DNA from: Thermoplasmata archaeon
Lineage (GTDB): Archaea; Thermoplasmatota; Thermoplasmata; Lutacidiplasmatales; SKW197
Length of the DNA: 64,000 nucleotides
Assembly (NCBI GenBank): GCA_038874435.1
Contig: JAVZCK010000008.1
Location: forward strand, 9,705 to 73,704
Direction: 5' to 3'
Position numbers and translations under genes: made by a program. Within the stretch, counting starts at the first letter, position 1, and every line of letters starts with the position of its first letter. Of the stretch, positions 40,937 to 62,414 are shown one piece after another. The notes below the pieces were generated by a model. That model searched no databases and had not been told where the DNA came from. It saw nothing but the letters and a program-made list of their open reading frames with translations.

Positions 40937-40937
40937 T

Positions 40938-43857: not shown

Positions 43858-44127
43858 ATGTTTTTCCTAACCATGGAAAAATACACTGTTGAGATAAAGG
43901 TTGAATTGAAGAAGGGCATCACAGATCCAGAAGGAGAAAATACAAAGAAAGCACTTGCACTTCTTGGTTTCAATGCGATAGAAAGTGTCCGCTCACTTAG
44001 AATTTACGAACTCATGGTTGTTGCTGAAAACAAAGAAAAGGCGCTCGCAATTGCCGAAGAAAGCTGCAAGAAATTGTTGGCAAACCCCGTGATTCACAAC
44101 TATAAAATTATGGTCAAAGAGCAGTGA
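43858..44127 (+). CDS. purS: phosphoribosylformylglycinamidine synthase subunit PurS
   Basis: 89 aa. PurS-like (...KKGITDPEGENTKKAL...). Directly upstream of and overlapping purL. Confidence 0.8.
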   Translation: MFFLTMEKYTVEIKVELKKGITDPEGENTKKALALLGFNAIESVRSLRIYELMVVAENKEKALAIAEESCKKLLANPVIHNYKIMVKEQ

Positions 44128-46457: not shown

Positions 46458-46500
46458 TGGCAAAGATTATATCTTCGGTTGAAATTTAAGTGGTGATACT

Positions 46501-48018
46501 ATGATGCAGAAAGAAAAAATAAAGATAGGAGTTCCAGGACTAGACGAGATGCTCCATGGTGGGCTTATCCCTGCCAGACCATACATTGTCTCAGGACAGC
46601 TTGGGAGTGGAAAGACCACGCTTGCAATGCAATTTCTGCTTGAAGGTGTAAAAAACGGGGAAAATGTGTTATACATCACTACTGAGGAGCCCCCGAATGA
46701 ACTTAAGAAAAATTTTGAAAGTTTTAACTGGGATATTTCAAGAATAAAGGTTTTTGATGCGATTCCAGATGTGATGACATATGAAATCACTCCAGTGAAA
46801 GACATAACTGCGTTGCGGGAGATTGTTTCATTTAAGGATGTACCATACACAATTCGGAAGACCCCAGAGCATGGAGCCCCAGAGATGACATTCAATGCAT
46901 TGCAGAATGCTCTCAAACTTGCCCTGTCAACAAGCGATTATGACAGAATAGTGGTGGATTCACTTACCGCACTCAAATTTTTCTGTATACCCTCATACGA
47001 CCATAACCTGGGTGTTCAGTCCTTCATTCGTTTTCTTTCCGAACTCAAGGTTACCGCACTGCTCACTGTGGAAATGCCTCTCGAGTATCAGTTTGAACCG
47101 GAACTTTTCCTCGCAAGGGGTGAAATTCGGCTGCTGAAGTGGAGAGACAAAGACGGGGAGTTAAAGAGAGGAGTACTGATTGAAAAATACAAGGGTTCCT
47201 CGCACGATGTGCACCTCCGCCCAATGGAGATTACACCAGATGGAATTGTGGTGTACTCAGAGCTGCATGTAGAAAAGAGCCCGCTTGAAGCATACCTTGA
47301 GGCAATGCCAGTAGAAGAGCTTGAAGAAGAGGAGGTAGAAGAGAATAGAATTCCAGTGTCATCAGAGACAATAGAAAAGAAGTCAGTTGCTGAAAATCTT
47401 AGGCCAGTGAATGAGCCCTGTAAAGTTGAGCCAGTACCTGCACCGCCTTCTCCAAATCTTCCCAAGGTGGTGCAATCGCCTGTGGAACCTCCCAAACAGG
47501 TTCCAGCCACACAAGTTCCTAGCCCTGTAGCCTCCGTTACAACTTCGACAGAAGAGAAAAGAGAGATTGTGGACAAAGCCCAGATAGAGGCACTAATCAA
47601 GGAGGTAAAAATTTTGAGGGATGATGCAAACGATGCAGATTTGATTGGGATAGATGTCACGGAAATTCGTGCAATGTTGGATAAAACCGACTCGCTACTA
47701 TCTCAGGGAAAGGTAGGCGAAGTTAAGGAAACAATTATGGCTGCGAGAAAATTGCTGGATGAGAGAATAAACCTCTTCCACACTGGTAGAGAAGTTGAGA
47801 AGGTTTCTGAAGGAAGTGGCGGCGTTGCTCCTGCTCAGATTCTTACACAAGAAATTCCACAAAGTGCTGAGGTGAAAGCAGAGGAGAAAAAGGTAGAAAA
47901 ACCAGCAAAAGAAAAGAAGCCAAGGAAAAAGAAAGAGAAAAAAGTGGAGGAGAAAGAGAAGTCCGCGAAAGAGAAGAAGCCAAGAAAAAGAAAAACTGAG
48001 AAGGAGGAGGTGAGCTGA
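46501..48018 (+). CDS. KaiC/RecA-like ATPase with Pro-rich linker and Lys/Glu-rich C-terminal tail
   Basis: 505 aa. Walker A GQLGSGKTT. Post-ATPase helical segment (IGIDVTEIRAMLDKTDSLL) shared with the next gene. Tail has AKEKKPRK repeats. Confidence 0.75.
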   Translation: MMQKEKIKIGVPGLDEMLHGGLIPARPYIVSGQLGSGKTTLAMQFLLEGVKNGENVLYITTEEPPNELKKNFESFNWDISRIKVFDAIPDVMTYEITPVKDITALREIVSFKDVPYTIRKTPEHGAPEMTFNALQNALKLALSTSDYDRIVVDSLTALKFFCIPSYDHNLGVQSFIRFLSELKVTALLTVEMPLEYQFEPELFLARGEIRLLKWRDKDGELKRGVLIEKYKGSSHDVHLRPMEITPDGIVVYSELHVEKSPLEAYLEAMPVEELEEEEVEENRIPVSSETIEKKSVAENLRPVNEPCKVEPVPAPPSPNLPKVVQSPVEPPKQVPATQVPSPVASVTTSTEEKREIVDKAQIEALIKEVKILRDDANDADLIGIDVTEIRAMLDKTDSLLSQGKVGEVKETIMAARKLLDERINLFHTGREVEKVSEGSGGVAPAQILTQEIPQSAEVKAEEKKVEKPAKEKKPRKKKEKKVEEKEKSAKEKKPRKRKTEKEEVS

Positions 48019-48019
48019 G

Positions 48020-49222
48020 ATGGGTGGCGATAGAGTTAGCACAGGGCTTCAGGAACTTGACCATATGTTGAATGGAGGGCTTTTGCCAGGTAGACCGTAC
48101 ATTGTTTCTGGTCCACCGGGCAGTGGCAAAACCACACTCTGTTTGCATTTTCTCAGAGAAGGGCTAAAAAACGGAGAGCGATGCATGATTGTAACTTTGG
48201 ATGAACCACCCAACGAAATAAAGGACAACATTTCGGTTTTTGGTTGGGATTTAAGCGGGATTGCTGTGTTGGATGCCACTCCTGATATCAGAAGTTACAG
48301 AAAGGCAACAGACATTTTAGAAATAAAAAGCATGAAGGATATCAAAACGCTGGGTGAGGTTGAGGATATCCGACAGAGCTCTGCAATAAATCCATATGAC
48401 ATCACAATTCAGTCCATTTACATGAAACTCAAAAAGGAATTCCAAGACAGAAAATACGACCGTATTGTGCTTGATTCCTTCACATCTCTACGTTTGTTTG
48501 CGGTCAAAAGTGAGAATATAGATAGCGAAAGACGAGAGATTCAGTCGTTACTGCGATTTCTTGCTGAATCCGAGGTCACAACACTCATAACTTCAGAGTA
48601 CCCATCGCCTACAAAGATTGACCCAGAGTTTCTAGTTGCGAGAGGGGAAATTCGTCTCCACAAGGAGGTAATAAAAGGTACAATTGTTCGTGGCATTTCC
48701 ATAGAGAGGTTGAGAGGCACAAGCCATGATACGATGATTCGCCCACTTGAATTTACAAAGGAAGGATTGAAAATTAGAATTCCTCTGTTTAAGGGAAAGC
48801 AAGTTCCCACTTCCAAACTCACAAATGTCACCTATTCGGACGAGGAAATCAAGGCGATTATGGAACAGATCGTAGACATGAACTCATGGGTGGAGTCAAA
48901 GCTTGAGAAATGTGTTGAGATTGGAATTGATGTGAGCCACATTGAATCGTTAATTGACAAGGCAAAAATGCTTCTAGATGCATCCGAGTACAACGAAGCA
49001 TTGGAATGTGCAAAAGAGGCATGGAATATCACAGACCATAAACTTAACCAATACTTTACTGCCGTGGAACGCTGGAGAGCAAAACAAACCACTGCCAAGG
49101 ACCTGCAAGAGTATCTTAACCAGTATCCTGCAGAGCCGCTGTGTGGGGTATGTGGATGTAAGGAGATAATTCTCCTGGAGGATGGTCGACTACAGTGCAG
49201 AAGATGTGGAAATATTTTGTAG
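48020..49222 (+). CDS. KaiC/RecA-like ATPase with C-terminal zinc ribbon
   Basis: 400 aa. Walker A GPPGSGKTT. Helical segment IGIDVSHIESLIDKAKMLL homologous to the upstream paralog. C-terminal CGVCGC...CRRCG. Confidence 0.75.
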   Translation: MGGDRVSTGLQELDHMLNGGLLPGRPYIVSGPPGSGKTTLCLHFLREGLKNGERCMIVTLDEPPNEIKDNISVFGWDLSGIAVLDATPDIRSYRKATDILEIKSMKDIKTLGEVEDIRQSSAINPYDITIQSIYMKLKKEFQDRKYDRIVLDSFTSLRLFAVKSENIDSERREIQSLLRFLAESEVTTLITSEYPSPTKIDPEFLVARGEIRLHKEVIKGTIVRGISIERLRGTSHDTMIRPLEFTKEGLKIRIPLFKGKQVPTSKLTNVTYSDEEIKAIMEQIVDMNSWVESKLEKCVEIGIDVSHIESLIDKAKMLLDASEYNEALECAKEAWNITDHKLNQYFTAVERWRAKQTTAKDLQEYLNQYPAEPLCGVCGCKEIILLEDGRLQCRRCGNIL

Positions 49223-49239
49223 TAGGGGATTAGACAATA

Positions 49240-50325
49240 ATGAGAACGGGTTTTGCAGACCTTCCGCTGCATGGTGGTAGTGCACCCAGATGGTTGTTTG
49301 AGAGAATGGTTAAACTTGAGGGTGCAATAGCTGAGGTGATTGTTGAGGAATATGGCACCGCAGAATTGCTGAGACGCCTGTCCTCGCCTCACTGGTTCCA
49401 GGCGTTTGCCTGTGCAGTTGGCTTTGACTGGCATTCAAGTGGGACAACCACAGTTACCTGTGGTGCACTCAAGGAAGCCTTGGCGTTGAAAAATCTTGGC
49501 GTAAGGGTAGCTGGTGGCAAAGGTGCGACTTCAAGGGCAACCCAGCAGGAGATTGTAAAAATCGGTGATGAATTCAGTTTTACTGGGAGAAAGATTGACG
49601 AATTGAGAAGAGCAAGCAGAATGTGTGCAAAGGTGGACAACAATTGTGTCCAGGATGGACATGAACTCTACCATCATGTTATGGTGGTTGCAGAAAGCGG
49701 GGACTGGTGCGTGATTCAGCAGGGGATGCACAAGGAAAGGAATTACGCAAGGAGATACCACTGGTTTCAGCCAGAAAAATTCGTGGTTGAGCCACATGCT
49801 GGGATAGTTGGAGAGAGGATAGAGAATGTCCTTGATTTAACAGCTAAGCAAAGTGTGGAAGTCCAGAAGACCAGTGTTGACCTTGTCTGTGATGATTTTG
49901 AGAGATTACCGAGGTACCTTGCCTCTCTCACCCATCAAAGCACACTTGAGGATTTTGTTGATGGGCATCCAGTTAAACTTGAGAAATTGCAAATGCCGCT
50001 CAATGTGAACTGGGAGGTTTTGAAAAGAGTTTATGAATTCCAGCCCAGAAATTTTGAGGAACTTGTTGAGTTTAAAGGTGTGGGTGTCAGCACACTCCGT
50101 GCCCTTGCCCTGATCAGTGAAATTATTTTTGGAAAGGAACCGAGCTGGAAAGACCCTGTGAGGTTTTCGTTTGCAGTGGGCGGCAAGGACGGTGTGCCCT
50201 ACCCTGTTGACAGAAAAGCAATGGACGAATCAACAAGGTTTTTGATAGAGACGATAGAAGGGGCGAAAATTGGGAAAAAGGAAAAGCTTGAAGCGCTAAA
50301 AAGGTTGCCAGAAATAAAAGAATAA
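49240..50325 (+). CDS. conserved archaeal hypothetical protein (DUF763-like)
   Basis: 361 aa. N-terminal LPLHGGSAPRWL motif, which I recall as characteristic of the DUF763 family; not verified. Confidence 0.4.
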   Translation: MRTGFADLPLHGGSAPRWLFERMVKLEGAIAEVIVEEYGTAELLRRLSSPHWFQAFACAVGFDWHSSGTTTVTCGALKEALALKNLGVRVAGGKGATSRATQQEIVKIGDEFSFTGRKIDELRRASRMCAKVDNNCVQDGHELYHHVMVVAESGDWCVIQQGMHKERNYARRYHWFQPEKFVVEPHAGIVGERIENVLDLTAKQSVEVQKTSVDLVCDDFERLPRYLASLTHQSTLEDFVDGHPVKLEKLQMPLNVNWEVLKRVYEFQPRNFEELVEFKGVGVSTLRALALISEIIFGKEPSWKDPVRFSFAVGGKDGVPYPVDRKAMDESTRFLIETIEGAKIGKKEKLEALKRLPEIKE

Positions 50326-50331
50326 AAGAGT

Positions 50332-51078
50332 TTAGAGCTGGAAAAGCTCATGGGCAATTGCATGCTGGCTCTTGTATGAGGGGTTTGTGATAGCACATAC
50401 GATGTAATATTCGCCGCTGTCAACCGAGAAGCCAGTGTTTGAATTCAATGTCCAGTGATGCACACCATAGCTTCCAGGTGAGAGCGAGTACTTCTTTGAA
50501 GTTGTGTAGGCATAGACCACATCCCCGTTTGAGTTGTACACATAGAAGTGGAAGTAGCCAGTTATTGTAGTTGTTCCAGAATTCCAGACATAGATTTCCG
50601 CCCTGTTTGCTGTCTGGTTCATCACTGTTATTGTGTAGATTGATTTTGTGCTTCCAACCCCTATTTTGAAGGTTGCCAGTGCAAATTCACCAGCAAACCT
50701 TGCCTTGACCACATATTCATCCTCTGCAACCAGATTGCCATTTCCATCTTTCTGGTCCCAGTAGAAGCTTATGGATTGTGAGGGTTGAAGTGTGTAGAGC
50801 ACTGTGAGAGTGGGCACAGCAGCAACAAAGGCACCATCCTTCTTGTGGATGGTTACAGAAGGAGTGTCCATCATTTCTATACTCCCTGTGTTTGTGAGTA
50901 CGAAACCTACACCCTGCCCTCTCTCATAGTAGTTCTTCTCAACTGCAATTGAGATTGCTCCCTCTCCATTTCCTGTAGCCACTGTCTTTGGAAGGCATAG
51001 CACTGCAAGTGCACCTGCGAATAGAAGTCCGAGCACCAAAGCCAGACCGAATTTGATTTTTCCATTCATGGTTATCAC
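50332..51078 (-). CDS. secreted beta-rich hypothetical protein
   Basis: 248 aa. N-terminal signal peptide or signal anchor (FGLALVLGLLFAGALAVLC). No known motif. Confidence 0.45.
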   Translation of the reverse strand: MITMNGKIKFGLALVLGLLFAGALAVLCLPKTVATGNGEGAISIAVEKNYYERGQGVGFVLTNTGSIEMMDTPSVTIHKKDGAFVAAVPTLTVLYTLQPSQSISFYWDQKDGNGNLVAEDEYVVKARFAGEFALATFKIGVGSTKSIYTITVMNQTANRAEIYVWNSGTTTITGYFHFYVYNSNGDVVYAYTTSKKYSLSPGSYGVHHWTLNSNTGFSVDSGEYYIVCAITNPSYKSQHAIAHELFQL

Positions 51079-51126
51079 AAAACCGCCTACAGGCAGGGGG
51101 TATTTATAATTTACTACACTGTGTAG

Positions 51127-54100
51127 TTAATCTCTCTTTCGCTTCCTCCAGAAAACAACTGGTGCAATCAAAAATACGAACAGGGCAAGGAATGAGAGAT
51201 CACCACTTTCCGCTATCTCTGCATGATATATTGCAGTGAGGGAATTTGCGGTGCTGCTATTTTCAGCCCATAGTGAGAGGGCAGAACTCTTGTTTGTGAC
51301 CACCAGACAGCCAGGATAAACTCTAACCTCTCCATCATTGTCATTCACACGGAGCGGAGAAAGCCATGTCTGGCCATTGTTTGTTGTGTTTGAATATGAA
51401 ATATTTGCTTTTGTTCCCGTGATGTTGATAAATGCAATGTTTGCGAATGCACCGTTTGCAGCCACTGACGGGAAGAGTTCATCATTGGTTGAAAGGGCAA
51501 CAGCTGAGAGCCCTGGGCTTGTAGCAAATTCATCGGTAGACCAGAAACAGTAGATGTCGCGGTCCCCATAGGTATCATCCTGGAATGCCACATATCCGTA
51601 ATTTCCGCTGATGGAAATTGATGGATACATTTCGTTTTCAGCCCATGGAGTGTACCAGCCATTCCAGTTCTCGCCATCTGCAGAATAATACCAAGTTATG
51701 TTGTAATTTCCACCCGTTTCATTTTGGAATGCTATGAATACATAATTTGCATTAATCCCGGCACTTGGGTTTCTCTCATCTGTTGTTGTCTCGTTAAAAT
51801 AGAAGTAACCATTCCATGTATTTCCTCCATCTGTTGAATTCACAAACCCAATGTCATACTTCCCAGGATTTGTGGTGCTCTCATTTTCATAGAAAATATA
51901 CACTATATCATTATAGGCAACAATTGAGGGGTTCTTCCATTTTGATGAATCCCAGCCAGGAATATAATATTCGGCCCAGACATTACTCGCATTAGTGTAT
52001 TTCCCAAATGAGAATGTAGCATTTTCGTAAGCAACATAAATATTCTGGGTAATTGGGTCTACGCATATGGAAGGATTTGTCACATTTGTTGTTGTGCTGT
52101 TTTTGCTCCAAGAGGTGGCCCATGCGCTTGTAAGTCCCTCTATACCTGCTCTCACAAAAACTCCGTGCGATGTTTCGGAATTATTTTGCTGGTATGCAAC
52201 ATAAATTGTTCCGTTTGCAGCTACACAGGCAGATGGATTGCTTCCATTTAGTTTCGGTGAGGTGCCAAGGATATTTGTGTCTGAGGTAAATGGTGCATCA
52301 AGGATATCAATTCCTCCTGATTTCGTCTCCACAACAGGAGAAACAACCACTTTTGTTTGGGCATGTGGTAACGGGTCAACTGTTAGCGTTGCACTTGCCC
52401 TTCCTATGGGATTACTCTCATTTGTATAGTCCTTGTTCTCCTTCCAGTCGGATGTGACAAATACCATTGAGGCATTTTCGTCTATCATCAGCTTCACTTC
52501 AATCTGGTAGTTATCAATTTCTGCTGCCACATATCCGGCAAATTCCCAATCTCCAGAGGCATTAAAAACAAAATATTTCTTTGAAAGAATTTTTCCATTT
52601 TTGCCATTTATCTCAACAAAATAATTTGCAAGAATGTGTCCTATCTTGTAGCCGACAGGAGGCGAACCCTTCTGGATGTAGATGCTGACAAAGTCGGTAG
52701 CATTCAGTGGTGGCGAAGGAATCACGCCACCCCCACCAGACCCTGAAATCTTGACTGGGCCAGTGTATGGCACATCAATTCCACCAAGCAAATTTTGTTC
52801 AACTGAAAGGTAGAGATTAATGGTTGAATCTTCCCTCACTGCACCGAATTTTTTAATGTTGTACTGAGCAGGAGCATCGTCCTCATCCTCCTCAAGTTGC
52901 TTGTCTCGCCAGTCAGCAAAAGCTCCATCTATTATTATTTTGGCAGGGGCACTTTTCACATACGAAACTTTTGCTTTACCTGCATCCTGGCTCTCGGATA
53001 CACTCACCACTCCTTCTGCTTTCACACTCTCTCTACCATCAATTTCTATTCCCACTGCACTCTCCGGCAGATGGGCACTGGCATTCAGATAAAATACAAT
53101 TTCTGTTTTTGTTTTGGTAATTACTGTGTTAAAACCAATCTCCTTTGCACCACTGAAAGTTTCTCTCGCTCTTGCACCGCCGTTGATGGAATATTCTACA
53201 TCTACTGGCTGACTACTGCCAACTTCCTTCAGCACTATTCCTTTCAGTGTCACATCTTCCTGCGGTGCAGTCAACTCTACCCTTATGTACTCTGCAGCAT
53301 TATCAATCACTTCATTGCCCACATACTTCACATTACAAACGAGTGCTGGCTTTTTGTTTGACACAATATAATCTGAAAAGTCCTCAGCACCATTGTAGGA
53401 AAACATATGATAAATAACTTCAATGTTCTCGCTATTGAATATCTTTTTCTGGACACGAAGTTCCACTGCATGGAGTGATTTCGCACAGTCTATGCTTCCA
53501 TAACCAATTTTCGCCTGCCAATCAAAATTCCCTCTGCTTTCATCAAATTTGTAAACTTCGTGTATCTGGGCTTCTCCCCTGCAACCACCCAAATTAAGCA
53601 CATAGTCTGCACCGATGCCTCGCACAAAGTAGCCTGTTTCAGGGTTGCAATCAGCATCCACAAAAATGTGGAGAATATCCATGTAGCCAGCATTTGCCTG
53701 CTTTGCATCGCCCTCAAAAATCTCGCCTCTCACCTCTACCAGAAAATAATACCATTTCTCATCGCTCTCAATCGCTGCATTCACGATGTCTATCTGAGTA
53801 GGCACAATGCCTGCAGAAAACTGGCTTTTCTTTGCACCTTCCCAGTCCGAAAACTCACCATCCAACTGGATTCTCTCTTTCTTTATTAAGAGAAGCCCTC
53901 CCAATGCGACACAAATCAAAATTATGGTGATAACAGGGACAAGGTAAAGATAAACTCTTTTTTGTTGCTTCTTTTTGCGGATTTGAGCCCTGTGGACAGG
54001 ATAACCGCGTCCCTTCACGCCATTGATTTTGCCTTGGCTTGTCTCCCTCAGACCATTAGAGGCTGCTCTTTCACGTTGAGCAACGCCAGCAGTGGTTCTG

Positions 54101-54267
54101 CCTTCTATATTTTCAGGCGAGGAATATTCTGGCTCTTCAGTTTCAATTCTTTCAAAAATTTCATCCAGCTTTTCATGGACAGTTTTTGGAAACATATAAT
54201 TGCACTGAAGGCAATGGCTGGCTGTATCATCATTTTCATAGTTGCAGAGAGGACAGATTTTAGACAT
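51127..54267 (-). CDS. giant double-anchored surface protein with C-terminal BNR/Asp-box (sialidase-like) propeller
   Basis: 1046 aa. Cytoplasmic N-terminal zinc ribbon (CPLCNYENDDTASHCLQCNY). TM helix. About 400-aa domain near-identical to its upstream paralog. Asp-box repeats (STDGGNTW, SADGENW, TNNGQTW). C-terminal TM plus WRKRKRD. Confidence 0.75.
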   Translation of the reverse strand: MSKICPLCNYENDDTASHCLQCNYMFPKTVHEKLDEIFERIETEEPEYSSPENIEGRTTAGVAQRERAASNGLRETSQGKINGVKGRGYPVHRAQIRKKKQQKRVYLYLVPVITIILICVALGGLLLIKKERIQLDGEFSDWEGAKKSQFSAGIVPTQIDIVNAAIESDEKWYYFLVEVRGEIFEGDAKQANAGYMDILHIFVDADCNPETGYFVRGIGADYVLNLGGCRGEAQIHEVYKFDESRGNFDWQAKIGYGSIDCAKSLHAVELRVQKKIFNSENIEVIYHMFSYNGAEDFSDYIVSNKKPALVCNVKYVGNEVIDNAAEYIRVELTAPQEDVTLKGIVLKEVGSSQPVDVEYSINGGARARETFSGAKEIGFNTVITKTKTEIVFYLNASAHLPESAVGIEIDGRESVKAEGVVSVSESQDAGKAKVSYVKSAPAKIIIDGAFADWRDKQLEEDEDDAPAQYNIKKFGAVREDSTINLYLSVEQNLLGGIDVPYTGPVKISGSGGGGVIPSPPLNATDFVSIYIQKGSPPVGYKIGHILANYFVEINGKNGKILSKKYFVFNASGDWEFAGYVAAEIDNYQIEVKLMIDENASMVFVTSDWKENKDYTNESNPIGRASATLTVDPLPHAQTKVVVSPVVETKSGGIDILDAPFTSDTNILGTSPKLNGSNPSACVAANGTIYVAYQQNNSETSHGVFVRAGIEGLTSAWATSWSKNSTTTNVTNPSICVDPITQNIYVAYENATFSFGKYTNASNVWAEYYIPGWDSSKWKNPSIVAYNDIVYIFYENESTTNPGKYDIGFVNSTDGGNTWNGYFYFNETTTDERNPSAGINANYVFIAFQNETGGNYNITWYYSADGENWNGWYTPWAENEMYPSISISGNYGYVAFQDDTYGDRDIYCFWSTDEFATSPGLSAVALSTNDELFPSVAANGAFANIAFINITGTKANISYSNTTNNGQTWLSPLRVNDNDGEVRVYPGCLVVTNKSSALSLWAENSSTANSLTAIYHAEIAESGDLSFLALFVFLIAPVVFWRKRKRD
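52686..53883. repeat. copy A of about 1.2-kb near-identical direct repeat (partial gene duplication)
   Basis: Encodes residues about 129-528 of the 1046-aa protein. These are about 90% or more identical to residues 167-570 of the 1628-aa protein. Identical spurious plus-strand ORFs sit at a constant offset of 4824 bp. Confidence 0.85.
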
Positions 54268-54318
54268 ATTTCTCGCTCAGTAAAACGGTCTCCTGCCTAA
54301 TAAATTTTTCTAAATGTG

Positions 54319-57300
54319 CTATGTCTGGCAATTGTCCTTTCTTCTCCGCCTTCTCTGAAACAGAATGATTCCAGGTGCTGCAGGAACTGCCGCAATAAAG
54401 AAAAGTGCGGACTGGCTTTCAGAAACCTGGGTTGAAACAACCACAGAATACCCATTGTTTGAACTGTTTGCAGGTGCCCCAGTACACAAGTCCTTGTATG
54501 TGTCAGAGTTAACATCTCCGAGGCTTGCGATTGCCCAGCCCAGCTTTGAGCCAGATGTTGTGCCGAAGTAATAGTACTCTGCATTTGTTGCACTCATCAC
54601 GCTCTGGATGTTGTTCCCATCAAATACATAGATTGCACCAGTGCCTCCCGTGTTTATTGCACCCACTGCAAAGTCCTTTGAGCCATTGCTGTTAAAGTCA
54701 CCCAGGTAAGCGATGGAAAAGCCAAAATTGTCACCAGCACTTGCACCAGAGATTGTAGCATTCGGAGCATAGTGGACGATGAAGGTTTGGTCCTCAGCTG
54801 TGGGAGTTTGCCACACACCATTTACTGTCCAGGATGAGCCCGCATCAGGGTAAGGATTGCTATTGTCTGCAAGCCAAAGATACCCGTTGTTTGCTGAATC
54901 ATAGTTTATACCCACAATCCAGTATGTAGCACCTTGAGTTACATACGCAGGAGTAGTAAAGCTTATTAATTTCCATTCGCCCCATGAAGTAAAATCCATT
55001 GGTTCTGAAGAAGATAATGCAGTTCCGGGCAAGCCAGAACTAGTTGCATTTATAGAAAAATATGCTGCTGTGGAATCGGTGCCATAATCAATACAAGATA
55101 CTTCTACAGCAGAGATATAACCCGTCTTTGGTGCAACAAATGCCTGAGCGAGAAATTCCGAAGAATCAAGCAAATACCCAATCCACATGTCTGTTATTGC
55201 ACATGGCTCTGAAACGCCTCCAGCATTTGGATAATAGTAGTATATGCTAGCAGAGCCAGTACCTGAGTTGTTGTTGGGTGCACCCACTATCAGGTCTCCA
55301 TAGCCATCTCCATTTAAACTTGGTGTAATTGCCACGCTTGTGCCAAAACCGCTATTCGTTGTTGTTGGGACAATCTTCTTTGACCGTGTTGCCGTGAGCA
55401 CAACATCATCAATATACACATACTCATTGTTTGCATTCGCCCAGATATCAAACTCAATTACTATGCTTGCAGTCATGTAAAAGTACTTGCTTAAATCAAT
55501 GGTTACCTGCTCGTACTGTGTTGTGCTGGGAACAGCCATAATCAGACAGAACCAGCGGTCTTCCGCAAAGAGATAGACCTCGCCGTCCTCACCAGCATCT
55601 AATCCTGCCGACATCCACCACCATGAAAGTTGCACATTTGTGGCATTTCGCATGTCAAACTCTTTTCCTATGTAGGCTATTCTATTAAGATTTCCTTGAA
55701 GTCTTGCAGCCCTGTTCCCGCTGTGAACTGGGGAAGTAACAAGACTGGCTATGTTTGCATTATTTGGATTTTCATACCAGCCAGGAATTTGATTACTTAT
55801 CTCAGGGTTTTCAAATCCCTCCTGGAAAATCTGGGTTGCAGATAAAGCGCCACCGTTAAATGCAGACACCCTGCCTCTTGCCCCCTCTATGTTGTTGTTC
55901 TTAAAATTCGGGCTTCCGACAGCCAGATCGTCTTTTCCATCGTTGTTCAGGTCCCCACCAGCAGAAACACTGTAGCCAAACTGCTCATTCGGATACGCAC
56001 CAGCAAGAATTGAATTTGCATTCTTGGCATAGCTTGGAACTGTTCCATCATAGAACACATAGGTCCTTCCAGCAGGACCCCAGACACGGACATCATCAAT
56101 GTACCAGCCCCTGGCAACAGTTGCACTGTCTGAACCGAAGTGGAAACGAACCTTGATTGTTTTGCCTGCATAATCCGCAAGGAGCACAGTACATTCATAC
56201 CATGCTTGCATATCAACATACCATGCCTCCTTGTTATACAAGGGATTAGAAGCTGCAGTAATTGTGCCATTGTAGTGAGGCCAAGGAGAATAGGGCATGT
56301 GCATGTTAATTTGCGTCCATGTAGCAAAATTATCGTCGGATGTGGCAATTTCTATTAACCCCCCATCATTTGCTGTGCCCTGAAAGTCACGCCAGTGCCA
56401 GAAAGACAGATAGAGGGCACCAGATGGGAGCTTAATTTCAGGACTCACAAGGGCGGCGCTGTATTGGTTGGCGTAATTGCCAGCAAGGTTTGTGCCCCAG
56501 CATTTTGTGCCGCTGTGCGTGGATGCAGGTGGGCTTGTGGGCGTGCCCCGCTGCCATTCATCTATTGCACTTCCACCCGTGTTATAGTGGGTCCAGTCCT
56601 CGTCTGTACTGCCTTCAAAGTCATTGGAATAAACATCCTGTCCAACACCAGGGGCACCAACAACCAGGTCTGTGGTGCTTGCACCGTTTGTGTTCCCCAC
56701 GCTCACAGACCAGCCAAATCTGTCCCCTTCGCCAGTCCCATTTATGCACTTTGTTCCGTAGGGATAGGTGGCTAAATCAATTGTTTTCGGTGAACTCAGG
56801 GCTGAGCCATAGACCACATAAACTCTCCCTGGTCTCAGCGTGCCATTTGAGGCATTTGGAGCACCAATGATTAAGTCATTCTTTCCATCACCATCCAAAT
56901 CACCAGATGTAATGTTCCACCCAATATTATCGTTTGTGTTGTTACCATAAATTGTGATGTTAGCATTTGCTGGATTTATATTCGCAAATTCCATTCCTTT
57001 GTAGCCATAGAAAACATAGACAGCCCCGCAATCTGTTCTGCTCGAATAGTCCGCATATGGCGCGCTCACAGCAAAATCCACAATTCCATCGCCGTTTACA
57101 TCACCCAAAGAGGCAATTGAATATCCAAACCACTCTGCTGAGCTACCAACACCATCAGTAACCTTTACGAGCTGGGTGTAGGCCATAGGAAGAATCTCTC
57201 CCGACTTCCAAGAAACACTTGTTTGCGACTTGCTCCAGTCAATGCTATGGTTCCAGTTTGAGGTTTCAAAAACGATTGTTAGATTCCCTTCAAGCGGGCA

Positions 57301-59205
57301 CATTACCTCAATCTGCAGACTGTCCTTTGCACAAAGAGGTGAATCAATTTTGTTCCATCGCTCATCGTAGATGGATGCCCCAGTAAACTCATACATTGTG
57401 GCGTTTACAATTTTACCATGAAGCCCAATTACCTCAATCTTATAGTTTGCGAGAAGTCCATAAATGTTGTACCCGAATGTGATATTTTCTTGTGAAATGT
57501 AGATTCTGAGATAGTCGTACCCGATGAGAGGCGGTGGTGTGACTGGTTGAGTTGGTGTGATGTTGTGCTCAACTTTCACAGGCCCGGTGAAAGGCACTTC
57601 TGCGCCGAGGAAGAGGGCATTTTCAACACTCGCATAAAAACTCACATTTCTGTCGTTTCTGAACGCTCCGAATTTCTTGATGTTGTACTGAGCAGGAGCA
57701 TCGTCCTCATCCTCCTCAAGTTGCTTGTCCCTCCAGTCACCAAAAGCTCCGTCTATTTTTATTCTAGCAGGGGCACTTTCCACATACGAAACTTTCGCTT
57801 TACCTGCATCCTGGCTCTCGGATACACTCACCACTCCTTCTGCCTTCACACTTTCTCTGCTATCAATTTCTATTCCCACTGCACTCTCCGGCAGATGGGC
57901 ACTAGCATTCAGATAAAATACAATTTCTGTTTTTGTTTTCGTGATCAATGTGTTGAAACCAATTTCTTTTGCACCGCTGAAAGTTTCCTTAGTCCTTGCA
58001 CCGCCGTTGATGCTGTACTCTACATCTACTGGCTGGCTGCTTCCAACTTCCTTCAGCACTATTCCTTTCAGTGTCACATCTTCCTGCGGTGCAGTCAACT
58101 CTACCCTTATGTACTCTGCAGCATTATCAATCACTTCATTGCCCACATACTTCACATTACAAACGAGTGCTGGCTTTTTGTTTGACACAATATAATCTGA
58201 AAAGTCCTCAGCACCGTTATAGGAAAACATGTGGTAAACCACTTCAATGCTCTCGCTGTTAAAAATCTTTTTCTGGACACGGAGTTCCACTGCATTGCTT
58301 GATTTCGCACAGTCAATGCTTCCATATCCAATCTTGCCCTCCCAATCAAATTTGCTCCTGCTCTCATCAAACTTATAAACTTCATGGGTAAAAACCTCAC
58401 CTCTGCAACCACCCAGATTAAGCACATAATCAGCACCGATGCCTCGCACAAAGTATCCTGTCTCAGGGTTGCAATCAGCATCCACAAAAATGTGAAGGAT
58501 ATCCATGTAGCCAGCATTTGCCTGCTTTGCATCGCCTTCAAAAATCTCGCCTCTTACCTCTACCAGGAAATAATACCATTTCTCATCGCTCTCAATCGCT
58601 GTGTTCACGATGTCTATCTGAGTGGGCACAATGCCTACAGAAAACTGGCTTTTCTTTGCACCTTCCCAGTCCGAAAACTCGCCATCCAACTGGATTCTCT
58701 CTTTTTTTATCGAAATCAAAGCCATGAGTGATGTTATTACAAGAATGCATACAATTAAAGGCACCACAATTTTTCTGTACTCCCTCTTTTTTATTTCCCT
58801 TCTTGCTTTCGTGGGCTTAAATGTGCCATTTGTTAGACCGTTGGTCATCCCGTTAATTCTTCCCGCCCTTGTTGCTCCTGTTTCCCTTGTTGCCATGGGC
58901 GTTCTTCCTAAACTCATGGTCTCCCTGCTTTCTGGCACATCTGATGAAGGTTTTGTCTCTTCTTCCTCTAAAGATGCCAAAATTTCATCAAGTTCTTCCT
59001 CTATCTCCTCCTCCTTTTTTGGTTCTTCAATTTCCTCAAAAATTTCATCCAGTTTTTCATGCACTGTCTTCGGAAACACATAGCTACACTGCTTGCAGAA
59101 TTTATCAGCATCCCCTGCCTCGTAACCACAAACAGGGCATCTCTTCATTGCTCCCCCTATGGATTTACCCACTAATAAACTTTTTTGATGCCAACCTCTA
59201 AACAA
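54319..59205 (-). CDS. giant double-anchored surface protein with FG-GAP/integrin-alpha-like propeller and additional beta-sandwich domains
   Basis: 1628 aa. N-terminal zinc ribbon (CPVCGYEAGDADKFCKQCSY). Acidic linker and GRINGMTNGLTNG. TM helix. Shared 400-aa domain. Seven D-x-N/D-x-D-G-x-x-D repeats (DVNGDGIVDFAV, GDLDGDGKNDLIIGAP, GDLNNDGKDDLAVGSP, ...). C-terminal TM plus QRRRRRKD. Confidence 0.75.
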   Translation of the reverse strand: MFRGWHQKSLLVGKSIGGAMKRCPVCGYEAGDADKFCKQCSYVFPKTVHEKLDEIFEEIEEPKKEEEIEEELDEILASLEEEETKPSSDVPESRETMSLGRTPMATRETGATRAGRINGMTNGLTNGTFKPTKARREIKKREYRKIVVPLIVCILVITSLMALISIKKERIQLDGEFSDWEGAKKSQFSVGIVPTQIDIVNTAIESDEKWYYFLVEVRGEIFEGDAKQANAGYMDILHIFVDADCNPETGYFVRGIGADYVLNLGGCRGEVFTHEVYKFDESRSKFDWEGKIGYGSIDCAKSSNAVELRVQKKIFNSESIEVVYHMFSYNGAEDFSDYIVSNKKPALVCNVKYVGNEVIDNAAEYIRVELTAPQEDVTLKGIVLKEVGSSQPVDVEYSINGGARTKETFSGAKEIGFNTLITKTKTEIVFYLNASAHLPESAVGIEIDSRESVKAEGVVSVSESQDAGKAKVSYVESAPARIKIDGAFGDWRDKQLEEDEDDAPAQYNIKKFGAFRNDRNVSFYASVENALFLGAEVPFTGPVKVEHNITPTQPVTPPPLIGYDYLRIYISQENITFGYNIYGLLANYKIEVIGLHGKIVNATMYEFTGASIYDERWNKIDSPLCAKDSLQIEVMCPLEGNLTIVFETSNWNHSIDWSKSQTSVSWKSGEILPMAYTQLVKVTDGVGSSAEWFGYSIASLGDVNGDGIVDFAVSAPYADYSSRTDCGAVYVFYGYKGMEFANINPANANITIYGNNTNDNIGWNITSGDLDGDGKNDLIIGAPNASNGTLRPGRVYVVYGSALSSPKTIDLATYPYGTKCINGTGEGDRFGWSVSVGNTNGASTTDLVVGAPGVGQDVYSNDFEGSTDEDWTHYNTGGSAIDEWQRGTPTSPPASTHSGTKCWGTNLAGNYANQYSAALVSPEIKLPSGALYLSFWHWRDFQGTANDGGLIEIATSDDNFATWTQINMHMPYSPWPHYNGTITAASNPLYNKEAWYVDMQAWYECTVLLADYAGKTIKVRFHFGSDSATVARGWYIDDVRVWGPAGRTYVFYDGTVPSYAKNANSILAGAYPNEQFGYSVSAGGDLNNDGKDDLAVGSPNFKNNNIEGARGRVSAFNGGALSATQIFQEGFENPEISNQIPGWYENPNNANIASLVTSPVHSGNRAARLQGNLNRIAYIGKEFDMRNATNVQLSWWWMSAGLDAGEDGEVYLFAEDRWFCLIMAVPSTTQYEQVTIDLSKYFYMTASIVIEFDIWANANNEYVYIDDVVLTATRSKKIVPTTTNSGFGTSVAITPSLNGDGYGDLIVGAPNNNSGTGSASIYYYYPNAGGVSEPCAITDMWIGYLLDSSEFLAQAFVAPKTGYISAVEVSCIDYGTDSTAAYFSINATSSGLPGTALSSSEPMDFTSWGEWKLISFTTPAYVTQGATYWIVGINYDSANNGYLWLADNSNPYPDAGSSWTVNGVWQTPTAEDQTFIVHYAPNATISGASAGDNFGFSIAYLGDFNSNGSKDFAVGAINTGGTGAIYVFDGNNIQSVMSATNAEYYYFGTTSGSKLGWAIASLGDVNSDTYKDLCTGAPANSSNNGYSVVVSTQVSESQSALFFIAAVPAAPGIILFQRRRRRKDNCQT
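57510..58707. repeat. copy B of about 1.2-kb near-identical direct repeat
   Basis: See copy A. Offset is 4824 bp. Confidence 0.85.
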
Positions 59206-59210
59206 TGAGT

Positions 59211-60257
59211 TTAGCAGATTCTCGGAACAGGGTCCCCAATTGGTGGCTGGAGAATTCGCATCCCTCCGACCCTGGTTTTAAGTGCCACGCCATCAATGTC
59301 CTTTCTGGCCATGCCTATAATTGCTGCCTCTTTTCCTTCCCTGGTTTCGCGCAGTGTCTCAAGCACCTGCTCTGCCATTGCTGGCACTACTGCAAGCACT
59401 ACCTTGCCTTCATTTCCGATTTCGTATGGGTCAATCCCAAGCATTGAACAGGCAGCCCTTACTTCGTCTCTAACTGGGATTTTTTCCTCCTCAACAACAA
59501 TTCCTACACTTGACTTCTCGCTCCATTCGTTGAGCAAGTTTGCAAGCCCTCCTCGTGTCGCATCCTTCACCGCACAGATGCCACCCACTTCAAGTGCTCG
59601 CCCTAGCATTTTGTTAAGAGGCATGACATCGCTCACAAAATTGCCCTCAAACCCGATTCCTTCCCTTGCTGAAAGCACTGCAGCACCGTGGTCTCCCACA
59701 TAGCCAGAAACAATAATTACATCTCCATCAGCCACATTTGAGTCCAGAAGCCACGCATGTTTAACAGTTCTGTATTTTCTTGCTACTTCAAGATTCTGAT
59801 CAAGAAGTTCGTGTCTCCTGCCTATGCCCGATGTGTTGATAACAATCTCGCTTAAGCCACCATGCTCCACAACTTTAGTGTCCCCAGTAACAATCTCCAC
59901 ATCTGCTTCTTCTGCAGTCGCTGCCATGCTTTCTACAATTTTCTCAAGTTTTTCCTCCTCAAAACCCTCCTCAATCACGAAAGCGGCCGAAAGTGCCAGG
60001 GGTCTCGCACCCACGCAAGCGAGGTCATTCACTGTGCCAGCTACAGAAAGCCGTCCGATATCGCCACCAGGGAAAAAAATTGGTTTTACTGTGTGCGAAT
60101 CTGTGGTGAACACAATACCCTCAACCACAGCGGCATCATCAAGAGCTGCCAATGGCACCTCTGATTCACCCCTACCAAAGTGTTTCAGAATCTTCTCTTT
60201 AATCAAGCGTTGCATCACACTGCCGCCAGCGCCATGGGCTATCGTAATTTTACTCAT
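59211..60257 (-). CDS. hypE: hydrogenase maturation factor HypE (PurM-like carbamoyl dehydratase)
   Basis: 348 aa. Collinear match to HypE: N-terminal IAHGAGG, FFPGGDIG, VTGDTKVV, DATRGG. Diagnostic C-terminal PRIC. Confidence 0.85.
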   Translation of the reverse strand: MSKITIAHGAGGSVMQRLIKEKILKHFGRGESEVPLAALDDAAVVEGIVFTTDSHTVKPIFFPGGDIGRLSVAGTVNDLACVGARPLALSAAFVIEEGFEEEKLEKIVESMAATAEEADVEIVTGDTKVVEHGGLSEIVINTSGIGRRHELLDQNLEVARKYRTVKHAWLLDSNVADGDVIIVSGYVGDHGAAVLSAREGIGFEGNFVSDVMPLNKMLGRALEVGGICAVKDATRGGLANLLNEWSEKSSVGIVVEEEKIPVRDEVRAACSMLGIDPYEIGNEGKVVLAVVPAMAEQVLETLRETREGKEAAIIGMARKDIDGVALKTRVGGMRILQPPIGDPVPRIC

Positions 60258-60355
60258 GAAAAAAGGGAAAGAGTGTAGGTATTTTAGGGTTGGGATTCAT
60301 CATTGCTGAAGTATGCAGACAAACCCTTATATCTGCCTGATTTTTAGCTGTTCCG

Positions 60356-61693
60356 ATGGCAGACCTGAACTCAATTCTGCTGGCTATTGTGGTAATCGGT
60401 ATCTATTCTCTCATCGTGCTTATGCTCTGGAAACTGAAGTATCTTGAGAAATACAACTTCACGCCGTGGGCGGGCCCTATCCTGATGTGGAAGACAAAGA
60501 GAGGAAAGAGATTTCTTGACCGCCTTGCCAAAAGAAAAAAATTCTGGGAATGGTACGGGAACATCAGTGTGGTCATTGCAATAATCTCAATGTTTTTCAT
60601 CACTGCACTGCTTGTTTGGTCCGTTTCAAAGGTGAGTTTGATACCAAAGGAGAAAGCCCCTTCTCCTGAGCTCTTGCTTGGAATACCGGGCATAAACCCT
60701 GTAATTCCTGTTTTTTATGGCATAATTGGACTTGTGGTTGCAATCGTCTTCCATGAACTTGCACATGGAGTGCTCGCAAGAGTGGCAGGGCTTGAGGTGA
60801 AGTCAGTAGGAATTCTGCTTTTCGTTTTTCCAATCGGTGCATTCGTTGAGCCAGATGAGGAAGAATTGTTGAAAATAAAGAGGATGAAACGCAGCCGAGT
60901 TCTTGCTGCAGGCCCAGCAACAAATCTCATCATTGCTTTTCTTGCCCTGCTCGTGTTCTGCCTTGCTTTTGCACCTGCAATGGAACCGAGAGCTGAAGGG
61001 ATTGGCATTCTTGGTGTCGAAAAGGACAGCCCAGCGAGCCATACCTCGCTTAAGCCCTATGACATTCTCGTCAGTTTGAATAACACAACTGTGCGAAATT
61101 ACGCGGAATTTAAGGAGGCATTGAACAAGACAAAGCCAGGGGATACTGTTGAATTCTCATTCTACTCCAGAGACAGGAATACTATTGTCACTGAGAACAT
61201 TACAATTGGTAATCGCTATGATTTTATTCCTGCGGAGGAAAACAAGGGAAAACCATACCTGGGTATTACGATGCTCCCCCTAGACCTTGGTTCTTTCAAG
61301 CAACAGCTTGCAAACCCGTTCAATGGTGGAATTGCCAGCTTTCTCACATTCCTCAGTTTGCCATTTTTGGGACTCTCGCCTCTTGATGCTGGCATTGGGA
61401 GTTTCTATGTGCTCAACTCCCCGCTTCCAGCAGATGTTTTTTTCCTGCTTCTCAACACCTTTTACTGGCTTTTCTGGATTAATCTGATGGTCGGGCTTAC
61501 CAACACACTGCCCAGCCTTCCCCTCGATGCTGGCTACCTTGTGAGAGACGGACTCTACATCCTGCTGGGACGCACAAAAGCCACAAAGGAAAAGACAGAG
61601 AAGATTGTAAAGTATGCTATGCTTGGCATTGGATTACTTGTGCTCTTCATGATTCTCTTCCAGATTATTGGTCCAAGAATCTTCGGGACATGA
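60356..61693 (+). CDS. site-2 protease (M50 family) with PDZ domain
   Basis: 445 aa. Polytopic. HELAHGV zinc motif inside a TM helix. PDZ-like segment (GILGVEKDSPAS...). Distal LDAGY/LxxD motif. Confidence 0.85.
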   Translation: MADLNSILLAIVVIGIYSLIVLMLWKLKYLEKYNFTPWAGPILMWKTKRGKRFLDRLAKRKKFWEWYGNISVVIAIISMFFITALLVWSVSKVSLIPKEKAPSPELLLGIPGINPVIPVFYGIIGLVVAIVFHELAHGVLARVAGLEVKSVGILLFVFPIGAFVEPDEEELLKIKRMKRSRVLAAGPATNLIIAFLALLVFCLAFAPAMEPRAEGIGILGVEKDSPASHTSLKPYDILVSLNNTTVRNYAEFKEALNKTKPGDTVEFSFYSRDRNTIVTENITIGNRYDFIPAEENKGKPYLGITMLPLDLGSFKQQLANPFNGGIASFLTFLSLPFLGLSPLDAGIGSFYVLNSPLPADVFFLLLNTFYWLFWINLMVGLTNTLPSLPLDAGYLVRDGLYILLGRTKATKEKTEKIVKYAMLGIGLLVLFMILFQIIGPRIFGT

Positions 61694-62370
61694 GGCAAGA
61701 CATGAGCATAAAAATTGATGCGGTGGTTTACTCAAAACGAAAACACATTATGCTGAAGATTGAACCAGATGGCAAACTCATCGTGCATGCGCCTGTGCAC
61801 ACCAGCAAGCAAGAAATTCTAGTCGTTGTCCAGAGGCACAGAAAATGGATTGAGAAAACGAGAACAAGAATGCTGGAGAAGCGGAGACAACAGACGAAAA
61901 AGTTTGAAGAGGGCGAGCGATTTCTGTTTCTCGGGAAAGAGTATCCATTGAAAATAGGTAGAGGAAGTGAGCCACTGGTTTTTCAAGATGCTTTCATTTT
62001 GAGTGAGGATTATTTGGCACATTCAAAAGAGGTTTTTGAGTGGTGGTACAAAAACATGGCGAAGGCAATTCTAGTTCTGAGAGCAAGGGAACTCGCGGAG
62101 CAGTTTGGTTTCAAGCCAAAGAAAATCAAAATCACGAGCGGGAAAACAAGGTTTGGCTCATGCACCTCTAAGGGCTACATAAATCTCTCTTGGCGACTCG
62201 TGCTGGCACCTCCAGAAATAATTGATTATGTAATTGTGCATGAACTTGCTCATCTGAAAGAACCAAATCATTCCAAAAAATTTTGGGCGGTGGTGGAAAA
62301 ATTTATTCCTGACTACAAGACAAAAAGAAAGTGGCTGAAGGAAAATGGACATTTGCTTATCCTCAGATGA
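61690..62370 (+). CDS. DUF45/YgjP-like (M48-related) zinc metallopeptidase-fold protein
   Basis: 226 aa. C-terminal HELAHLKEPNHSKKFW, the hallmark of the YgjP/DUF45 family. Overlaps the S2P stop. Confidence 0.75.
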   Translation: MRQDMSIKIDAVVYSKRKHIMLKIEPDGKLIVHAPVHTSKQEILVVVQRHRKWIEKTRTRMLEKRRQQTKKFEEGERFLFLGKEYPLKIGRGSEPLVFQDAFILSEDYLAHSKEVFEWWYKNMAKAILVLRARELAEQFGFKPKKIKITSGKTRFGSCTSKGYINLSWRLVLAPPEIIDYVIVHELAHLKEPNHSKKFWAVVEKFIPDYKTKRKWLKENGHLLILR

Positions 62371-62414
62371 TGCTCTACAGAAAATATTTTATACCGCATT
62401 ATAAATGCCAGAAT

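Follow-up and report, generated by a model that had tools for sequence, protein, structure and literature searches.

Concerted evolution of a stalk segment in two tandem genes for giant, probably surface-exposed proteins of a Thermoplasmata archaeon

The gene pair A and B

We analyzed a window of 64,000 nucleotides from contig JAVZCK010000008.1 of a Thermoplasmata archaeon; "the window" below means this whole stretch. Two of its genes, here called A and B, are neighbors in the list of open reading frames (ORFs), both on the minus strand and head-to-tail, and encode giant proteins that are probably exposed on the cell surface. The first ~640 residues of A and B are homologous and comprise a zinc ribbon, a transmembrane (TM) helix, and a stalk of three beta domains, namely D1, an immunoglobulin (Ig)-like domain, and D2. 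One segment of the stalk, called the tract or the core below, has evolved in concert in the two genes, very probably by recurrent gene conversion. The features of the pair are as follows.

51127-54267, minus strand: gene A, 1046 amino acids (aa) (ORF and translation; the identical protein, P0163, is in public assemblies)
54319-59148, minus strand: gene B, 1609 aa from the ATG at 59148 (ortholog and public gene call)
54202-54255, minus strand: zinc-ribbon motif CxxC-x10-CxxC of A, residues 5-22, predicted to be cytoplasmic (regular expression)
59086-59139, minus strand: zinc-ribbon motif CxxC-x10-CxxC of B, residues 4-21 from the ATG, predicted to be cytoplasmic
54142-54207, minus strand: acidic, predicted cytoplasmic motif FPKTVHEKLDEIFE of A, 66 nt, 82% identical to 59026-59091 in B
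53887-53952, minus strand: N-terminal TM helix of A, about residues 106-127 (hydropathy), with the 5' end of the tract at its extracellular end
58711-58770, minus strand: N-terminal TM helix of B, about residues 127-146 from the ATG (hydropathy)
52841-53886, minus strand: tract, copy in A, codons 128-476 (blastn, synonymous and non-synonymous divergence, site patterns)
57665-58710, minus strand: tract, copy in B, codons 147-495 from the ATG, or 166-514 of the maximal ORF
53219-53391, minus strand: longest identical run, copy in A, 173 bp
58043-58215, minus strand: longest identical run, copy in B, 173 bp
52348-52840, minus strand: rest of D2 in A, residues 477-640, 25-44% identical in aa to B and grouping with its orthologs
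57166-57664, minus strand: rest of D2 in B (protein comparison)
51223-52230, minus strand: head of A, putative sialidase/BNR-type beta-propeller, about residues 680-1015 (AlphaFold2, Foldseek, motifs, homologs)
54424-57165, minus strand: head of B, FG-GAP blades with MAM-like inserts (Pfam, NCBIfam)
51142-51207, minus strand: C-terminal hydrophobic helix of A, followed by WRKRKRD (hydropathy)
54355-54414, minus strand: C-terminal hydrophobic helix of B, followed by QRRRRRK (hydropathy)

In blastp, residues 3-641 of A aligned with residues 21-680 of B (numbering of the maximal ORF) at 65% identity over 676 aa, and similarity between the C-terminal parts was below detection in the protein comparison. 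The initial annotation of this DNA, which had described adjacent paralogs with a common N-terminal half and unrelated propeller heads, was therefore right on this point. From the N-terminus, A is composed of the zinc ribbon, the TM helix, the D1-Ig-D2 stalk, a sialidase/BNR-like beta-propeller, a C-terminal TM helix, and a basic tail. B has the same order of parts, with an FG-GAP propeller and MAM-like inserts as its head. By the positive-inside rule, both ends of each protein would be cytoplasmic and the bulk would be outside.

The maximal ORF of B (54319-59205) is initiated by TTG and would encode 1628 aa. Since a start at the ATG at 59148 (MKRCPVCGY) is common to the ortholog on contig L001 of the genome SKW197 (see below) and the public gene call, this ATG is most likely the start of B and the product would have 1609 aa. 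In the regions upstream of the two genes (54268-54318 and 59149-59210, minus strand), a TTTATTAG element was read by eye about 27 nt 5' of both ATGs. It is possibly an archaeal TATA box, which would give A and B separate promoters.

The zinc knuckles are CPLCx10CLQC in A and CPVCx10CKQC in B. The Pfam zinc ribbon scored below the cut-off on B (16.6 bits vs 25) and did not match A, and the assignment is based on the motif; several other family members have full Pfam zinc-ribbon matches. Downstream of FPKTVHEKLDEIFE, both proteins have a low-complexity linker and one TM helix, which is preceded by a basic cluster. At the other end, the C-terminal helix of A could be either a membrane anchor or a sorting signal. 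Like A and B, substrates with archaeal sorting signals (PEF-CTERM TIGR03024, Heimdall-CTERM, Loki-CTERM) end in a hydrophobic helix and a basic tail, and in the consensus of 45 family members the last residues are PEFxxxxxP. However, none of the archaeal CTERM models reached its cut-off on A, B, or the third family member of the window (C, described below), the best match of A being Heimdall-CTERM at 15.2 bits vs 24 and B having none. In this respect they differ from PEF-CTERM/archaeosortase substrates; no archaeosortase was seen, and none was searched for. The distant member P0004 matched PEF-CTERM weakly (E = 0.0022, 18.2 bits vs a cut-off of 23).

The repeat and its divergence

The tract is a direct repeat of 1,046 bp (52841-53886 vs 57665-58710) with an offset of 4824 bp, no gaps, and 91 mismatches, giving 91.3% identity in blastn. 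The constant offset of 4824 bp was also obtained with a repeat finder and with an ungapped scan at that offset. Immediately beyond both ends of the repeat, identity drops to 26-47%. In protein, the core (A128-476, equal to B166-514 in ORF numbering) is 94% identical, residues 477-528 of A are ~40% identical to B, and the flanks of the core are 27-59% identical. The tract begins at the first extracellular residue, spans D1 and the Ig-like domain, and extends ~37 residues into D2. Its 3' end lies inside the first long beta strand of D2 and thus does not coincide with any domain boundary.

These limits change part of what the initial annotation had reported. The direct repeat, its offset, and the gene pair stand, but the repeat had been placed at 52686-53883 and described as perfect over ~1.2 kb. 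Likewise, the near-identity assigned to residues 129-528 of A and 167-570 of B holds for A128-476 and B166-514 and does not extend over A477-528. A perfect 1.2-kb repeat had also been considered a substrate for recombination, through which the two genes might be deleted or fused. At 91.3% identity and with 173 bp as its longest exact run, the repeat is a much poorer substrate. Because the exact repeat is only 173 bp long, deletion or fusion of A and B is less likely than had been assumed, and no such allele was present in the three assemblies examined.

Within the window, synonymous (dS) and non-synonymous (dN) divergence was estimated with the Nei-Gojobori method. Between the two copies of the core, dS is 0.39 and dN is 0.03, and the tract is under purifying selection (dN/dS ~0.08). 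The homologous flanks (zinc ribbon, linker with TM helix, and remaining stalk) are saturated at synonymous sites and have a dN of 0.38-0.85. The 91 differences in the core are mostly synonymous, and both reading frames are intact. Of these, 63 are transitions and 28 are transversions, an ordinary spectrum in which no adenine bias is seen. dS is uneven along the core, from 0.13 in codons 301-360 up to 1.2 in codons 231-300, and the youngest sub-tract, with dS 0.13, contains the 173-bp identical run. This mosaic suggests several tracts or events of different age. The last homogenization was not very recent, as dS is 0.39 overall and 0.13-1.2 in sub-segments.

Comparison with SKW197 and other relatives

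An ortholog pair of A and B from the metagenome-assembled genome (MAG) SKW197 was found by scanning a genome collection, on two contigs that we call L001 and L080. L001 carries B_SKW (8619-13466) and, after it, the N-terminal part of A_SKW, which is cut off by the end of the contig. L080 carries the remaining part of A_SKW, followed, as in the window, by a FlgD_ig-like protein, DUF763, two KaiC-like genes, and PurL. B of the window (B_win) and B_SKW are separated by a dS of 1.5-2 (~1.7) in every segment, including the core.

Outside the core, the sequences group by gene. In the two flanks, aa identity is 80% and 51% for A/A, 92% and 76% for B/B, and 59% and 27% for A/B. Inside the core, they group by genome. 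In codons 128-230, aa identity is 98% and 93% within the genomes vs 80-82% in all four cross-genome pairs. In the first 552 nt of the core, A_win and B_win are 90.2% identical, A_SKW and B_SKW are 93.1% identical, and cross-genome pairs are 76-78% identical, with 76 of 80 informative sites backing the grouping of paralogs. Over all alignable core sequence, 82 informative sites group the paralogs and one groups the orthologs (82 of 87 for the paralogs). In the flanks, 10 sites group the paralogs and 210 group the orthologs (core vs flank, Fisher p = 1.6e-61); the 5' flank alone gives 77 sites for the orthologs vs four for the paralogs. The pattern changes abruptly at both ends of the tract, and the codons at which it changes are shared by the two genomes: on the 5' side, where the first TM helix reaches the extracellular face (...LL|IKKE...), and on the 3' side, after ...NIKKFGA| (A476). 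The FPKTVHEKLDEIFE motif groups by orthology, and thus its conservation between A and B would be due to purifying selection and not to conversion.

More distant relatives bear on the direction and age of the exchange. The core of A_win is closer to the B-like protein P0165 (66/62%) than to the A-like protein P0166 (49/44%), whereas residues 477-560 in the flank of A are A-type (58 vs 42%). Since a B-like core is combined with an A-type flank, B-type sequence appears to have overwritten A, and the donor of the converted sequence was likely B-type. P0165 and P0166, considered as a third lineage, have unhomogenized cores (~45% identity), although their origin from a single genome is not established, and P0165 has no A-like neighbor, which is weakly informative. 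The A-like protein P0009 from another lineage also has a B-type core, and thus the first replacement of A by B sequence would be old. Closer to the window, the A copy of QQ_201709_bins_14 (A_QQ, locus L002) differs from A_win by a dS of 0.16-0.62 outside the core.

Structure of the stalk and the heads

The stalk of A (residues 128-640) was modeled by AlphaFold2 from a 45-sequence alignment as three beta domains, with a predicted local distance difference test (pLDDT) score of 91.2 and a predicted template modeling (pTM) score of 0.88. Alignment with hhalign showed D1 and D2 to be homologs (probability 100%, E = 1.8e-46), and each opens with a DGxFxDW motif, which we take to resemble the start of CBM9-type domains. 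In Foldseek, the best single-domain matches of D1 and D2 were CBM9 (1i82, Thermotoga maritima Xyn10A) and the DOMON-like chain C of 2ivf (the gamma subunit of ethylbenzene dehydrogenase), with probability 1.0 and with weak values otherwise (target-normalized TM score 0.46, E ~1e-3, identity 12-17%). Even with the threshold relaxed to E <= 10, Pfam did not match any of the three stalk domains in five family members. Over the stalk module it matched none of 45 family members, and a search of the stalk profile against the sequences of solved structures found nothing. The models thus hint that D1 may be a CBM9/DOMON-like sandwich with D2 as its homolog. Unlike CBM9 and DOMON domains, the stalk domains are duplicated around an Ig-like domain, are adjacent to the membrane, and have no sequence match in Pfam or the Protein Data Bank.

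The head of A has one canonical Asp-box (STDGGNTW at 811) and one degenerate Asp-box (SADGENW at 862). Pfam BNR and BNR_2 (PF02012 and PF13088) did not match A at E <= 0.1, but distant homologs of the head (E 1e-13 to 6e-4) carry PF13088 or PF02012. The AlphaFold2 model of the head is of moderate confidence (pLDDT 67.6, pTM 0.76); its top Foldseek matches were sialidases (E ~2e-9, TM score 0.46-0.6), and a search of the head against the sequences of solved structures gave nothing meaningful. The head of B is better defined by profiles, with six FG-GAP stretches (PF01839, E = 3.1e-43, 145.5 bits vs a cut-off of 22.1), an InhA-like_MAM match (E = 3.8e-5), and an NCBIfam match to an M36 C-terminal region. 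Its MAM-like inserts are beta-sandwiches of the "choice-of-anchor J"/InhA-like kind, and the ortholog is named choice-of-anchor J domain-containing protein at NCBI.

The FG-GAP assignment in the initial annotation is therefore confirmed, whereas BNR is not matched by Pfam and the sialidase-like fold is supported indirectly. The labels "BNR versus FG-GAP" seem acceptable at the level of fold, with no sialidase activity implied. Glycan binding by A and integrin-like ligand binding by B would likewise be analogies of fold. A resembles BNR/Asp-box (sialidase-type) proteins in its Asp-boxes, homologs, and fold, and differs in falling below the Pfam BNR threshold. B resembles FG-GAP (integrin-alpha-type) surface proteins in its six FG-GAP stretches, and differs in that its propeller is interrupted by MAM-like domains. 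Unlike known propeller proteins, both heads are placed on an archaeal chassis of zinc ribbon, TM helix, and stalk.

The module family

At E <= 1e-3, a profile of the D1-Ig-D2 module matched the representatives of 1,282 clusters (50% identity), and at E <= 1e-30 it matched 476 of them. The proteins have 500-6,763 aa, the module lies at varying distances from the N-terminus, and LTD, FG-GAP, and zinc-ribbon domains are among its partners. These numbers of clusters (>1,200 at 50% identity) and of partner domains bear out the initial proposal that the proteins are modular, combining a conserved stalk with varied heads. The genome scan confirmed 335 relatives, and nearly all of the 79 loci kept were from Thermoplasmata or Methanomassiliicoccales MAGs; a metagenome-contig scan with the core protein returned no relative. 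All close relatives are MAGs named "Thermoplasmata archaeon" with isolate names that sound like hot springs. Several loci can occur in one genome (at least 10 in bin33, CP070751, and at least six in bin396), and same-strand tandem arrays are present at seven other loci. The family did not turn up in the literature on Thermoplasmata FG-GAP/PEF-CTERM proteins or on SKW197, which yielded one unrelated paper.

A third, distant member, C, is present in the window itself.

22654-27561, minus strand: gene C, 1635 aa, with one DGxFxDW domain that is ~26% identical to A and B

C has three blocks of NosD/right-handed beta-helix repeats as heads, a C-terminal TM helix, and a basic tail. It has an internal repeat of 84% identity at 23022-23310 and is not involved in the conversion of A and B. 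In many family members, P0004, P0005, and the genes at locus L054 among them, the stretch that leads from the cytoplasmic N-terminus to the TM helix contains (G)(L/F)TNGNG-type repeats, such as INGMTNGLTNG in B (~58800-58850) and GFTNGLTNGFTNGNG in C (~27400-27470).

Homogenized segments were also found elsewhere in the family. Locus L054 has two tandem genes that are 86.9% identical over 1,304 nt, the block ending at the DGAFxDW motif of D2, and in this pair D1+Ig is 80% identical vs 35% for D2. In bin396 (CP070739), the loci L004, L007, and L012 lie ~1 Mb apart and share blocks of 586-1240 nt with 90-92% identity beside or in the module. D1+Ig of these paralogs is 74-76% identical vs 42-63% for D2, and dispersed pairs in bin396 give 76% vs 46% and 74% vs 42%. 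Because dispersed paralogs have such blocks, segmental exchange is not limited to tandem neighbors. Among 57 modules, same-genome pairs are 52% identical in D1+Ig vs 44% in D2, and different-genome pairs are 24% vs 30% (Mann-Whitney p = 1.7e-9); this statistic is exploratory, as the pairs are not independent.

Gene conversion and alternative explanations

A and B are paralogs of common architecture, and their tract has evolved in concert in two species within identical boundaries. In the core, paralogs of one genome are closer to each other than orthologs of the two species. The flanks are orthologous and syntenic, which rules out an independent duplication of the whole genes in each lineage, and synonymous sites are homogenized (dS 0.39 in the core vs saturation in the flanks and ~1.7 between species). 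Because the core groups by genome, the flanks group by gene, and the two species agree to the codon in the boundaries, we consider it very probable that A and B are ancient tandem paralogs in which recurrent segmental gene conversion has homogenized a 1,046-bp tract of the stalk. In this process, intrachromosomal, non-reciprocal homologous recombination between the neighbors would repeatedly homogenize the tract, and the zinc ribbon, linker, TM helix, rest of D2, and heads would evolve independently in A and B.

The initial annotation had proposed either a recent duplication or ongoing gene conversion. Conversion agrees with a core that groups by genome and flanks that group by orthology. A recent partial tandem duplication, with a ~1-kb segment or the whole 5' half copied too recently to diverge, would fit two adjacent genes on one strand and a 91% block with sharp edges. 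It is nevertheless very improbable, since the homologous flanks of the block are saturated at synonymous sites in both genes and the B-A pair is conserved, with the same flanking genes, in a species at a dS of ~1.5-2. Moreover, the core groups by genome in both species, and independent duplications would have had to use identical codons twice. If the SKW197 arrangement were instead ascribed to mis-assembly or contamination, this would be opposed by the genome-wide dS of ~1.7. An assembly artefact in the window, in which a short-read assembly had collapsed or joined one gene or mixed strains, had been named as a possible refutation. It could explain why contigs of related MAGs break within the core (P0001-P0003 are partial), why the end of L001 and the start of L080 lie in runs of 75-77 nt identical to the paralog, and why contig JAVZJE010000031.1 ends within the 173-bp run at window position 53265. 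Such breaks at exact repeats are also what short-read assemblers produce at a true two-copy repeat, and it is because of the repeat that MAG contigs of this lineage break in the A and B genes. The 91 differences are mostly synonymous (63 transitions and 28 transversions) and leave the frames intact, the A-B junction reads as in the window, with 100% identity, in two further public assemblies (41127-54739 and 53265-64000), and a different species, SKW197, has the same arrangement. As far as the assemblies show, with three of them agreeing at 100%, an artefact is thus excluded, and we regard it as highly improbable.

One old conversion or domain swap, followed by strong purifying selection with no further homogenization, fits somewhat better and is still improbable. 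The low dN/dS of the core (~0.08), a core dS of 0.39 that is not small, and the B-type core of P0009 would all be expected from it. However, synonymous sites are homogenized separately in each genome while the core dS between genomes is ~1.7, and 82 of the 87 informative core sites, mostly synonymous, are common to the paralogs of one genome. The range of core dS along its length (0.13-1.2) indicates several tracts of different age, and A_QQ matches either copy at the A/B differences of the 3' core and is slightly closer to B_win than to A_win. Programmed diversification of the stalk, by a diversity-generating retroelement or by cassette-based antigenic variation, is extremely improbable. A surface multigene family with a repeated segment, in which homogenized D1+Ig recurs in other genomes, is reminiscent of such systems, but the 1-kb tract is under purifying selection, and it is the heads that vary and not the repeated segment. 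A retroelement target in particular was rejected, as the mismatch spectrum has no adenine bias and no reverse transcriptase is among the annotated neighboring genes.

Several points weigh against recurrent conversion or against parts of the picture built on it. Both genes are known in only one other species, SKW197, in which the A copy is split over two contigs and lacks codons ~312-451. The last homogenization in the lineage of the window is roughly as old as the split from QQ_201709_bins_14, so "ongoing" conversion is unproven. The donor may also have been a third paralog elsewhere in the genome. The Foldseek matches of D1 and D2, the model of the A head, and the comparison of 57 modules have the limits given above, and adhesin-like heads on matched stalks are inferred as a function from analogy of fold.

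The persistence of the boundaries under recurrent conversion could have two causes, which may act together and which the data do not separate. The flanks may be too diverged for extension of the heteroduplex, so that divergence would reinforce itself, or selection may keep D2 and the head specific to each gene and the proximal stalk matched. A and B could be adhesin- or receptor-like surface proteins that show different heads on a common stalk, as the analogy of their folds suggests. Within one cell, a match between the common stalks may be required, perhaps so that they can interact with one envelope partner or pack laterally.

A stronger version of this idea is that selection, and not just neutral conversion, keeps D1+Ig uniform in each cell to fit a common, fast-evolving partner. 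We think it rather unlikely. The partner could be the proteins themselves, in a lateral lattice or envelope layer, or a species-specific component of the membrane or its glycans; Thermoplasmata have been described as wall-less archaea. It would be compatible with tract boundaries that are common to two species, with a recurring break region at the start of D2 in unrelated genomes (in the window, in L054, and in the dispersed copies of bin396), and with D1+Ig being less conserved between genomes and more alike within genomes. If it were true, these proteins would form an envelope system of a common chassis with an exchangeable head, in which the chassis evolves in concert genome-wide.

Comparison with known cases of concerted evolution

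Concerted evolution of prokaryotic paralogs is known, but published archaeal examples are few and metabolic (mtrA, PMC4632066; survey, PMC6053082). The seven archaeal genes in the survey are all from methanogens, and none encodes a surface protein (PMC6053082). As in A and B, the archaeal cases are old tandem duplicates that group by genome over long periods, and one copy also has fusions or other domains. They are metabolic or complex-forming genes of methanogens, whereas in A and B a 1,046-bp part of the ectodomain is affected in giant surface proteins of Thermoplasmata. Conversion among paralogous surface proteins of bacteria is classical. Bacterial surface and adhesin paralogs likewise have homogenized segments beside divergent ligand-binding parts and recombine between copies. 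These, however, are beta-barrel or autotransporter proteins in which conversion yields functional chimeras or variation on short time scales. In A and B, by contrast, conversion has spared the binding heads and keeps the stalk uniform, and its events took place long ago (dS 0.1-1.2).

The process itself is mechanistically ordinary, and A and B are a well-resolved example of known gene conversion in archaeal surface proteins. What they add is a well-delimited case of concerted evolution in this class of proteins, with boundaries resolved to the codon and common to two species. They also bring to light a module of ~500 aa, D1-Ig-D2, that is covered by neither Pfam nor solved structures and that carries very different heads in uncultured Thermoplasmata. 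To our knowledge, the cell envelopes of these archaea are essentially unstudied.

Neighboring genes and other features of the window

The genes on either side of the pair are the following.

50332-51078, minus strand: small protein 3' of A, 248 aa from GTG (245 aa publicly), with a hydrophobic N-terminal segment and a threshold-level FlgD_ig match
59211-60257, minus strand: hypE, directly 5' of B on the same strand (TIGR02124, E = 1.7e-113)

The FlgD_ig-like protein is also encoded at L080 1852-2589 and L081 3671-4408, and its position after A is conserved in SKW197. It may act together with the surface proteins or simply lie next to them. Divergent from hypE and B, the region 60356-62370 (plus strand) encodes a PDZ-containing M50 site-2 protease and a YgjP-like metallopeptidase. 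We considered A and B as substrates of the M50 protease (60356-61693) in regulated intramembrane proteolysis, to which zinc-ribbon/TM proteins could be subject, and rejected this, as hypE intervenes and nothing else supports it.

At 39926-42492 (minus strand), four ORFs on one strand form a candidate operon for ubiquitin-like conjugation. They encode an 81-aa protein with no Pfam match (42247-42492), a UFC1-like E2 (41762-42250, PF08694, E = 3.9e-13), a ThiF-type E1 (40938-41765, E = 3e-55), and a JAB/MPN protein (39926-40936, E = 2e-5). A UFC1-type E2 in a Thermoplasmata archaeon may merit separate attention. A complete archaeal 23S rRNA gene stands alone at 18365-21387 (plus strand). No 16S or 5S rRNA gene was detected within the 64-kb window, and thus the rRNA genes appear to be unlinked.

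Two further regions of the window also concern the cell surface. An archaellum cluster at 31276-39025 (plus strand) includes, by Pfam, two archaellins and a FlaC/FlaD-E fusion into which a zinc ribbon is inserted, and genes for FlaF/G-like, FlaH, FlaI, and FlaJ proteins come next, as read from the translations and not by profile. At 6231-8075 (plus strand), a predicted surface protein has a PQQ/BamB-like beta-propeller followed by Ig-like/CarboxypepD_reg-like domains, and its translation ends in a hydrophobic stretch and a basic tail.

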